This document shows, in pieces, positions 33,918 through 34,898 of a stretch of DNA of 64,000 nucleotides. Source of the DNA: Pseudomonas phage SW_PA2862_11_24. Where the stretch lies: the sequence record PV574406.1; one strand, written 5' to 3'. The notes beneath the pieces are model-generated. The model saw only the letters and a program-made list of their open reading frames with translations, did not search any database and had not been told where the DNA came from. Position 1 is the stretch's first letter. Every line of letters starts with the position of its first letter. A program made the translations under genes and the position numbers.

Positions 33918-34348
33918 TATGCCTCCATTTCAAATTCGTAAATTTTGTTAATCCTGCGGATGAGTCGCATAGCGGCCCCTCCCAGCAGATGTTCACGCTC
34001 CGGCTCCATACTAGCCATAGCCTTGAACTCTGATAACATATCTCGACGCTCGTAGTGGAAATCTACTACCCAGTAATGGTCCGCACTAATCTTACCCTCT
34101 CGGTACAGATGCCCTTCTACGCCCAGCCAGTGATCTACTGCGTCTTTCTTCAGAAGCTCCTTCGGAGACAACTTATCTACACCTCGCAGCTTCTCGAAGA
34201 AAGAGTAAGGACGCGAATAGCTGATGATAGCTTCCTCTACAGCCGATTCAGCCTGCAATTGGACTAACTCCCATCTTGCAAGGACTTCTTTAATCTCCCC
34301 GGTGGTGACTGGGGTGTAGCTGTACTGCTCTTTATATTCATTCCACAC
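33917..34348 (-). CDS. hypothetical protein
   Basis: 143 aa. Confidence 0.5.
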   Translation of the reverse strand: MWNEYKEQYSYTPVTTGEIKEVLARWELVQLQAESAVEEAIISYSRPYSFFEKLRGVDKLSPKELLKKDAVDHWLGVEGHLYREGKISADHYWVVDFHYERRDMLSEFKAMASMEPEREHLLGGAAMRLIRRINKIYEFEMEA

Positions 34349-34898
34349 TGTACTGTTCTCCTACATAGCCTTTGAATTTGTCGGAACGAGTTGTCTTCTT
34401 CCGTGCCTTGTTTTCCAGAACTGATGCCTCCCTTTCGAGCATGCTCAGTTGGTTGCTATACTTCTTGATCCGCTTCGAGTTACCACTCATCACAGAATTT
34501 GTAAGATTTGCGATAGTATCGCAAATTTTCACTTCTCTTGCAACCGGATGATTACGGCAAGCTTCGATATACTTACGGTAGCTCTCAGCACGGTTCTTAT
34601 CGAGAATGACCAAAGCCTCTACGATGTGAGGCATCACGCCCATGGACTCCAAGTCTTCCTCTGTCAACTCTGTATCCTCCAGAACGTCGTGCAGGAAGCA
34701 CACAGCGAGAAGAGTGTCCATGTACGGAAGGTCGGAGAAAGCCTGACCCGGGTCCATATCTTTAGGAGCGTTGCGAGCCACGCAGACTGTATGCACCTGA
34801 TTCAGATGGTAAGCATACGGGAAGTTGGTCTCTCCGTACCGCTGACCTTCGTGAGCCGAGAGTGCGATCTCAATAGCGATACCAAGCTGAGTGTTCAT
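34338..34898 (-). CDS. HD-domain hydrolase (Rel/SpoT/Mesh1-like small alarmone hydrolase)
   Basis: HEGQRY...HLNQV...CFLHDVLEDT matches the HD motif of (p)ppGpp hydrolases. Confidence 0.6.
   Translation of the reverse strand: MNTQLGIAIEIALSAHEGQRYGETNFPYAYHLNQVHTVCVARNAPKDMDPGQAFSDLPYMDTLLAVCFLHDVLEDTELTEEDLESMGVMPHIVEALVILDKNRAESYRKYIEACRNHPVAREVKICDTIANLTNSVMSGNSKRIKKYSNQLSMLEREASVLENKARKKTTRSDKFKGYVGEQYSVE

Follow-up and report, generated by a model that had tools for sequence, protein, structure and literature searches.

Why would a Pseudomonas phage carry a stand-alone hydrolase of the Rel/SpoT type, and on which substrate would such an enzyme act? The question is raised by a minus-strand gene at 34338..34898 of a 64,000-nucleotide stretch of Pseudomonas phage SW_PA2862_11_24 (sequence record PV574406.1; the whole stretch is called the window below), the product of which an initial annotation had taken for a Rel/SpoT-like HD hydrolase without a synthetase domain. 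We propose that this product is a broad-specificity small alarmone hydrolase (SAH) by which the phage erases what host synthetases of the RelA/SpoT homologue (RSH) type produce. We give this reading a probability of roughly 0.6, and our confidence in the enzyme class alone is higher.

The analysis establishes that the gene is real. The listing of open reading frames (ORFs) holds exactly one ATG-initiated frame of 186 amino acids (aa) at this position (stop codon 34338-34340), and its codons, including those of the motifs HEGQRY, H31 and CFLHDVLEDT on which the initial annotation had rested, were checked against the DNA and are present in the translation. The gene lies inside a long series of close-packed minus-strand genes, starts 1 nucleotide (nt) past the stop of the upstream gene for a SleB-like hydrolase and has 11 nt at its 3' end in common with the next gene, an orphan of 143 aa. 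Over the surrounding 6 kb, identity to Pseudomonas phages vB_PaeM_C2-10_Ab15 and Ab02 is 98%, and the 120 records that match all belong to Pseudomonas phages; we assign the window to Pakpunavirus (that is, to the PAK_P1-like virulent myoviruses of P. aeruginosa). Numerous phage genomes in GenBank encode the protein with 100% identity, and in approximately 118 records the identity is 80% or more, such that approximately 118 of the 120 Pakpunavirus records carry the gene, usually under the GenBank name 'metal-dependent phosphohydrolase' or 'hypothetical protein'. Pairwise codon-level comparison with PAK_P1, PaGz-1 and PaYy-2 gave ratios of non-synonymous to synonymous substitution rates (dN/dS) of 0.035–0.044, with dS of 0.7–0.97. 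Given this conservation, a match to a PHROG family (below) and a dN/dS of about 0.04, the ORF is a gene under strong purifying selection and not a chance frame.

As sequence, profile, fold and catalytic residues agree and a synthetase domain is absent, assignment of the protein to the RSH hydrolase (that is, SAH) class is supported. Among family models, PHROG 990 ('metal-dependent phosphohydrolase') gives a match of 2.7e-60, and the NCBIfam SpoT and RelA/SpoT models give weak ones (4e-4 and 6e-4). Searched as a single sequence against the PDB, it finds Aph1 first (adenosine 3'-pyrophosphohydrolase 1 of a Bacteroides caccae prophage, PDB 7SMG; 2.7e-11) and then PaSAH, from the host species of the phage (PDB 6YVC; 9e-6), followed by SpoT, Rel and MESH1. 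PaSAH hydrolyses (p)ppGpp as well as (p)ppApp. A family profile built from 138 relatives retrieves the same two enzymes at 1e-26 and 2e-24, with the hydrolase domains of Rel, SpoT, MESH1 and RelH next. A word-indexed homologue search had yielded 6 proteins, and an exhaustive search of 1.84 billion representative proteins was used instead; it returned 5,530 relatives at E ≤ 1e-3 (two of them at E ≤ 1e-30), most of which are 140–165 aa long.

The predicted structure leads to the same class. A single-sequence AlphaFold model was poor (predicted local distance difference test, pLDDT, 60.7) and was discarded for one computed with the family alignment, which is confident (pLDDT 89.5; predicted template-modelling score 0.85). 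Compared with the PDB by Foldseek, this model has RSH hydrolases at ranks 1–35 (Aph1, PaSAH, MESH1, RelH, Rel and SpoT), and every match at E ≤ 0.1 belongs to that class, with template-modelling (TM) scores on the target of 0.83 for Aph1 and 0.70 for PaSAH. The model comprises one helical domain and a low-confidence tail, with no synthetase or regulatory domain; the length of 186 aa fits just a hydrolase core (residues 1–155) plus a tail of 31 residues, and RelA_SpoT, the Pfam synthetase model, finds no match in the protein even at E ≤ 1, in keeping with the absence of a synthetase domain stated in the initial annotation. These results also bear on a more prosaic explanation, in which the protein would be a generic HD nucleotidase or dNTPase of phage nucleotide metabolism, unconnected to alarmones. 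The GenBank name says no more than 'metal-dependent phosphohydrolase', genes for a dCMP deaminase and a DNA ligase are nearby, and the generic Pfam HD model matches 47 of the 138 homologues. However, HD folds outside the RSH class appear in Foldseek only at E > 0.1 and are insignificant (YpgQ, E 0.15; YfbR, E ≥ 0.3 and TM 0.33–0.37), and the HDxxED, N131 and K-Y motifs are of the RSH-hydrolase type; we consider this explanation highly improbable. A further idea of the initial annotation, that cyclic-oligonucleotide messengers might be hydrolysed, drew no support from any search, and the homology does not run towards cyclic-nucleotide phosphodiesterase chemistry.

On closer alignment the full set of HD catalytic residues is intact, each position being invariant or at least 90% conserved in the 138 homologues. 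H31 (codon 34806..34808), the first metal-binding histidine, never varies in the family and is paired with H33 of Aph1 in the alignment. The segment H70-D71-V-L-E74-D75-T76 (codons 34671..34691; in the translation C67-F-L-H70-D71-V-L-E74-D75-T76) holds the HD metal ligands and the catalytic ED pair of the HDxxED motif, LHDVLEDT here being aligned with LHDTIEDT in Aph1 and LHDTLEDT in PaSAH; in the entry for the E74Q mutant of PaSAH (6z3o), the equivalent of this Glu is the sole changed motif position. The segment V123-K124-I-C-D127-T-I-A-N131-L132 (codons 34503..34532), which reads 'VK.AD...NL' in the family, supplies the last metal Asp and the ribose-contacting Asn. With H31, H70-D71 and D127 aligned to H33, H53-D54 and D110 of Aph1, the H...HD...D set is complete. 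Towards the C terminus, K145-K146-Y147 (codons 34458..34466) includes a near-invariant K-Y pair corresponding to Aph1 K133-Y134, which has been proposed to contact the pyrophosphate of the substrate (PMC10083569). Finally, H16-E-G-Q-R-Y21 (codons 34836..34853) represents the 'H.GQ.YG' motif of the family in the base-pocket loop, and Y21 and G22 occur in more than 90% of 138–150 homologues. Across the 138 homologues, H31, H70, D71, K124, N131 and Y147 are invariant, and H16, Q19, Y21, G22, Y28, E74, D75, D127 and K146 are conserved in at least 90%. At the DNA level, an inverted repeat of 12 bp, its arms separated by 3 nt (AAGATTTGCGAT-AGT-ATCGCAAATTTT; 34503-34529), sits inside the gene, exactly over the codons of the conserved K124–N131 motif; in a scan it was picked up as a terminator-like element of the antisense strand, and it may be there by chance.

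Around this core, three features are specific to the Pakpunavirus clade. One is a two-residue insertion in the base-pocket loop (T24-N25); another is an insertion of residues 46–60 between core helices (codons 34719..34763), modelled with high confidence and missing from most homologues. The third is the C-terminal tail (residues 156–186; codons 34341..34433), which is basic (isoelectric point, pI, 9.6), modelled with low confidence and likewise missing from most homologues. The end of the tail carries a motif, F-[KE]-G-Y-[VL]-G-x-x-Y-x-V-(G)-E, that is kept in the 59% identical protein of phage EM (locus L089, 4004-4549), and this conservation hints that the peptide has a function, such as docking. 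The core itself is acidic (pI 5.2), as in the nucleotide-specific enzymes Aph1 and PaSAH.

Which substrate, then, would this active site accept? The published signature of (p)ppApp-specific enzymes comprises six Aph1 residues (D24, R96, D116, R119, K133 and Y134; Ahmad et al., PMC10083569), and the family list to which it belongs, defined by homology to the C-terminal part of Aph1 (Y90–E143), has 2,769 members (PMC10083569). Two of the six are kept here, K133 and Y134 as K146 and Y147. D24, which has been equated with R43 of TtRel (PMC10083569), has no Asp equivalent and falls on the Y21-G22 region or a gap: HMMER pairs Y21 with it, and MAFFT places it in an Aph1-specific insertion. R96 is replaced by A113 (Arg or Lys in about half of the wider family) and D116 by T133, and R119 belongs to a four-residue insertion of Aph1 that the whole family studied here lacks. 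The spacing from N131 to Y147 is 16 residues, as in PaSAH, against 20 in Aph1. Residues 65–134 align to Aph1 48–117 without a gap (E 1.4e-9), and the profile alignment reaches Aph1 residue 147. Enzymes of the Aph1 family are characterised by a compact core of eight helices without the extra C-terminal helix and by a tetrameric assembly; here the conserved core stops near residue 155, as in Aph1, and the 31-residue tail with its short low-confidence helices follows. We place the protein in a distinct subfamily of RSH hydrolases, recognizable by its GQxYG motif and, by these alignments, approximately equally far from a (p)ppApp-specific and a dual-specificity enzyme, with a base-pocket loop of its own. 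Sequence by itself does not assign one substrate among (p)ppGpp, (p)ppApp, pyrophosphorylated tRNA and NADP(H)-type molecules.

The comparison with Aph1 raises the possibility that the protein is an Aph1-family enzyme acting on (p)ppApp exclusively, one that would shield the infected cell from Tas1-type effectors of the type VI secretion system, FaRel and MuF-Apk and have no action on (p)ppGpp. Aph1 tops the solved matches by both sequence and fold, the compact core and the K146-Y147 pair follow it, all 12 Aph1 homologues tested cleaved ppApp (with modest ppGpp activity in two), and Tas1 is deployed by P. aeruginosa strains (PMC10083569). However, D24 and R119, two of the four signature residues that are not kept, are those whose mutation relaxed specificity, as D24R together with R119A lets Aph1 hydrolyse ppGpp (PMC10083569). 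The family profile scores dual-specificity PaSAH almost equal to Aph1, and no (p)ppApp synthetase is annotated in the inspected parts of the related Ab02 genome. Given that four of the six signature residues are gone and that the base-pocket loop is family-specific, we regard strict (p)ppApp specificity as unlikely and expect the specificity to be broad.

The enzyme that we propose is thus a single-domain, metal-dependent RSH hydrolase, catalytically competent by its residue set, for which metal, substrate and biological role are inferred. By analogy with solved relatives, a metal ion (Mn2+ or Mg2+) would be held by H31, H70, D71 and D127, and water would be activated by the E74-D75 pair. Acting on a purine nucleotide, the enzyme would take off the pyrophosphate esterified to the 3'-OH of its ribose and so turn (p)ppApp and/or (p)ppGpp back into ATP/ADP or GTP/GDP; we expect that it would likewise free tRNA CCA ends of their 3'-pyrophosphate, as other SAHs do. 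Expressed from an auxiliary-gene block that includes putative NAD+ reconstitution and RNA-repair genes, it would act on the products of toxSAS/CapRel-like abortive-infection toxins, Tas1-type effectors and RelA, and the infected cell would keep translating.

Like Aph1, its closest match in sequence and fold, the protein is phage-borne and has a compact all-helical HD core of approximately 145–155 residues with the H...HD..ED...D...N set and the C-terminal K-Y pair; unlike Aph1, to which it is about 28% identical, it has two insertions and the 31-residue tail and has lost four of the six (p)ppApp-specificity residues (D24 and R119 included). The settings also differ, as Aph1 is an immunity protein of a temperate phage, where its gene adjoins that of a MuF-fused (p)ppApp synthetase, whereas the present gene lies in what we take to be a virulent myovirus with no synthetase annotated nearby. 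With PaSAH, nearly as good a profile match, the protein shares the N-to-Y spacing and a long segment between the same core helices, but PaSAH has Leu at the position of Y21, Asn at that of K146 and an extra C-terminal helix. At approximately 24% identity to PaSAH, a recent capture of the host gene was rejected as the origin of the phage copy.

Closer in proposed biology are the stand-alone SAHs PaSpo of Salmonella phage SSU5 and PbcSpo of PVP-SE1, single-domain phage proteins that neutralise all five of the five toxSAS tested (PMC7229694). A tblastn search with our protein at 1e-5 returned phages named for Pseudomonas, Vibrio, Aeromonas, Colwellia and Pectobacterium and none named for Salmonella, and by this search we would place these SAHs in different subfamilies. 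An annotated HD-fold SAH of Pseudomonas phage Adele, PaAdele_032, has been described as having a preference between (p)ppGpp and (p)ppApp that is not predictable (PMC12846349); it comes from the same genus and bears the same gene number as ORF32 of Ab02, and we liken it to our protein by annotation. More distant are MESH1 and XccSAH, which have the same fold (Foldseek E approximately 1e-4) and the same catalytic motif but are cellular housekeeping enzymes, larger (9–10 helices) and approximately 19–20% identical. Both hydrolyse NADPH (PMC9765508), and MESH1, ATfaRel and SSU5 PaSpo strip the pyrophosphate that toxSAS add to tRNA CCA ends, PaSpo having been shown to remove the modification made by FaRel2 (10.1101/2021.04.30.441581; 10.1101/2024.07.05.602228). 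One SAH can hence act on alarmones, NADPH and pyrophosphorylated tRNA, and promiscuity is frequent among the known SAHs of similar size.

Several observations weigh against a broad-specificity eraser of host alarmones and deserve to be set out together. The host already owns SpoT and an SAH of its own, and it is not obvious why the phage should need another. The protein reaches no threshold of the Pfam HD or HD_4 (PF13328) models and matches neither even at E ≤ 1; the HD_4 model, which describes RSH hydrolases, does match 63 of the 138 homologues at E ≤ 0.01, and the miss reflects divergence and insertions, not another fold. Identity to characterised enzymes is only 24–29% in the Foldseek alignments, and because the base-pocket loop is family-specific (Y21-G22, T24-N25), the substrate preference of Aph1, PaSAH or Rel is not transferable. 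The gene links described next are found in none of approximately 55 more distant viral loci; the association is limited to the nearest clade and could also stem from the way in which large lytic phages generally group their auxiliary genes.

For the genomic context, we compared 85 viral loci with homologues of the gene, of which 5 belong to deposited phages and 80 to IMG/VR; at 70% identity they fall into 55 clusters. Related loci were sought with a 12-sequence alignment. In the approximately 25 closest loci, the SAH gene lies less than 10 kb, and often 1–3 kb, from genes for an Rnl1-type RNA ligase, a kinase and a phosphoesterase and/or from Adps and Namat, the order of these genes varying between lineages. 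In Otagovirus, in KoPa-4 and in three metagenomic contigs, the SAH gene is directly followed by that for the phosphoesterase, and the order SAH-phosphoesterase-Rnl1 is found in Otagovirus and three metagenomic contigs. In Vibrio myophage 184E37.3a, phosphoesterase, Rnl1 and kinase genes are followed by four genes and then the SAH gene (confirmed by Pfam), and the T5-like Vibrio phage PG07 has Namat, one gene, SAH, one small gene and Rnl1. Adps-Namat-SAH is the order in contigs L009 and L010, and Adps-x-SAH-x-Namat that in L038. Family-wide, no neighbour is conserved: among 149 immediate neighbours (within two genes) in the 55 clusters, the commonest Pfam families occur three times each. The association with NAD+ reconstitution and RNA-repair genes is real for the clade of the Pakpunavirus protein and not for the whole family.

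This neighbourhood points to a counter-defence or repair island and not to a toxin-immunity pair. The immediate neighbours of the gene are the SleB-like hydrolase, the orphan and a metallophosphoesterase, with no cognate RSH synthetase alongside, and over the 67 kb inspected of the related Ab02 genome the annotation names no RSH synthetase; on that basis, an immunity protein paired with a phage-borne synthetase toxin (as for ATfaRel or Aph1) was rejected. A RelA_SpoT synthetase is found once among the 149 genes within two genes of SAH homologues (Pfam 7e-9; among loci L001–L082), and this lone case resembles the toxin-immunity arrangement of Aph1/Apk2 type.

An island of this kind invites the view that RNA is the main substrate and that the enzyme 'heals' tRNA 3' ends by removing pyrophosphate of the CapRel/FaRel2/PhRel2 type from CCA ends, working with the neighbouring kinase, phosphoesterase and Rnl1 ligase that repair cleaved tRNA. 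The linkage to the latter three genes recurs, in varied orders, in Pakpunavirus, Otagovirus, 184E37.3a, PG07 and metagenomic contigs, SAHs with this activity are known (as above), the C-terminal tail is basic, and investment in tRNA is heavy: the window holds 14 tRNA genes, and Ab02 encodes Pnkp and a second RNA ligase. Against this, the link is limited to the nearest clade (an RNA ligase lies within two genes in 3 of the 55 clusters), the core is acidic like those of nucleotide-specific Aph1 and PaSAH, the kinase, phosphoesterase and ligase assignments come from weak Pfam, PHROG or PDB matches, and activities on tRNA and on nucleotides are not mutually exclusive in known SAHs. As the main function we regard tRNA healing as possible but doubtful.

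The proximity to Adps and Namat suggests another role, that of an accessory phosphatase which dephosphorylates NADP(H) or 2'-phospho-ADP-ribose and feeds NAD(H) or ADP-ribose (ADPR) to Adps and Namat under NAD+ depletion by host defences. NAD+ reconstitution pathway 1 (NARP1), in its version with an associated ADPR-1''-phosphate phosphatase (NARP1-AP), counters aRES NAD+ depletion (10.64898/2026.01.28.702374; PMC12846349), and the Macro-domain Adpp and RyDEP, both embedded in NARP1 operons, supply ADPR (10.64898/2026.01.28.702374; 10.64898/2026.05.28.727677). SAH homologues stand directly downstream of Namat (L009, L010), between Adps and Namat (L038) or 1–2 kb from Namat (L005, L008), and hydrolysis of NADPH by MESH1 and XccSAH provides a precedent. 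In the window, however, 4–5 kb and seven genes separate the SAH gene from the NARP1 genes, a Macro-domain gene is already a candidate for the accessory phosphatase, MESH1 is structurally more distant than Aph1 or PaSAH, and there is no residue-level sign of NADPH binding. We judge this role improbable; were it true, the SAH would be the third such enzyme after Macro Adpp and RyDEP, channelling NADP(H) or phospho-ADPR into NAD+ reconstitution. The tRNA-healing and NAD+-feeding roles are compatible with the same chemistry; together they form the most unconventional reading, in which the SAH is a dedicated component of a mobile counter-defence island (either a tRNA 3'-end de-pyrophosphorylase that rounds off a phage set for tRNA repair against CapRel/toxSAS-type immunity or a third NARP1-associated phosphohydrolase) and not primarily a means of alarmone control. 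We hold this reading tentatively, as an outside chance; if it were true, the GQxYG base-pocket motif would mark a new substrate specificity within RSH hydrolases.

Apart from the tRNA genes, the genes of the window on which these comparisons draw are all on the minus strand. Upstream, the SAH gene is abutted by the gene for a SleB-type cell-wall hydrolase with a hydrophobic N terminus (34900-35460; Pfam Hydrolase_2). The late region of Ab02 (L090 24301-25548) has a separate endolysin-holin-spanin cassette, which makes two lysins in a phage with the SleB-type hydrolase. A strong terminator-like hairpin (35481-35501, minus; 8-bp stem with seven G-C pairs and a T-rich tail) lies in the narrow space between the genes for a DUF7390 protein and the SleB-like hydrolase and may mark a transcription-unit boundary or an attenuator upstream of the hydrolase-SAH-orphan-phosphoesterase run.

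Downstream follow, in order, the orphan, the metallophosphoesterase, two small genes, a gene called 'membrane protein', Rnl1, an AAA_33 kinase, Prs, NAMPT and Macro. The orphan (33917..34348; phrog_6781), which overlaps the SAH gene and, by 1 nt, the phosphoesterase gene, was found in Pakpunavirus loci only and matches nothing in Pfam or the PDB; its product might act as partner or regulator, either for the SAH or for the phosphoesterase. The calcineurin-like metallophosphoesterase (33363..33917; Metallophos_2) and the Rnl1-type RNA ligase (31505-32422) are named from Pfam and PHROG matches; one of the two small genes between them is a helix-turn-helix gene, and the 'membrane protein', so called in Ab02, has no Pfam match. 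The AAA_33 P-loop kinase (31078-31494) matches a polynucleotide-kinase PHROG at 1e-8. PDB searches of the neighbouring genes gave weak or uninformative matches only, for which reason the RNA-repair labels rest on Pfam and PHROG. Kinase, ligase and metallophosphoesterase resemble a heal-and-seal RNA repair set. Beyond the window, the Ab02 genome encodes a T4-like Pnkp (3'-phosphatase/5'-kinase) and a second RNA ligase (L090 27985-29130 and 46851-47801), and that phage may have two RNA-repair pathways. The 14 tRNA genes (Gln, Arg, Leu, Ile, Asp, Met, Cys, Asn, Pro, Gly, Phe, Glu, His and Thr) are clustered on the plus strand at 42483-45399, just upstream of the structural module. The NAD+ reconstitution genes are an Adps-like Prs (30193-31068) and a Namat-like NAMPT (28233-29921), followed by a Macro-domain protein (27549-28028) with a weak Pfam match (3e-4, below the curated cut-off); by these matches, the three genes (27549-31068) appear to correspond to NARP1-AP.

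How much of this is new? That phages encode SAHs is well established, and their use against defence by alarmones was proposed in 2020 (PMC7229694). The suggestion made in the initial annotation, that the protein could degrade alarmones and thereby blunt stringent or abortive responses, has likewise appeared before, for phage SAHs (PMC7229694) and for PaAdele_032, the Pakpunavirus orthologue called an SAH in print in December 2025 (PMC12846349); literature searches brought up no experiments on the gene, whether in PaoP5 or in Pakpunavirus. What the present analysis adds, on sequence comparison, is the distinct GQxYG subfamily with two of the six Aph1 residues and its recurrent neighbourhood of NARP1 and RNA-repair genes. 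The finding extends known biology and opens no new category.

If our interpretation of the protein as an eraser of RSH-synthetase products is true, it would represent a natural counter-defence against RSH-synthetase immunity in real infection, evidence for which has so far come from co-expression in Escherichia coli only. A subfamily without the published (p)ppApp signature could help to map the determinants of purine, tRNA and NADPH specificity in RSH hydrolases, and the recurrent placement of SAH, NARP1 and RNA-repair genes side by side ties three counter-defence modules together in a concrete way that can be put to the test. Few therapeutic phages of P. aeruginosa are used as widely as Pakpunaviruses, and the SAH gene is part of their core and strongly constrained; if its product erases the outputs of toxSAS and alarmone synthetases, it would co-determine which clinical strains such a phage overcomes.

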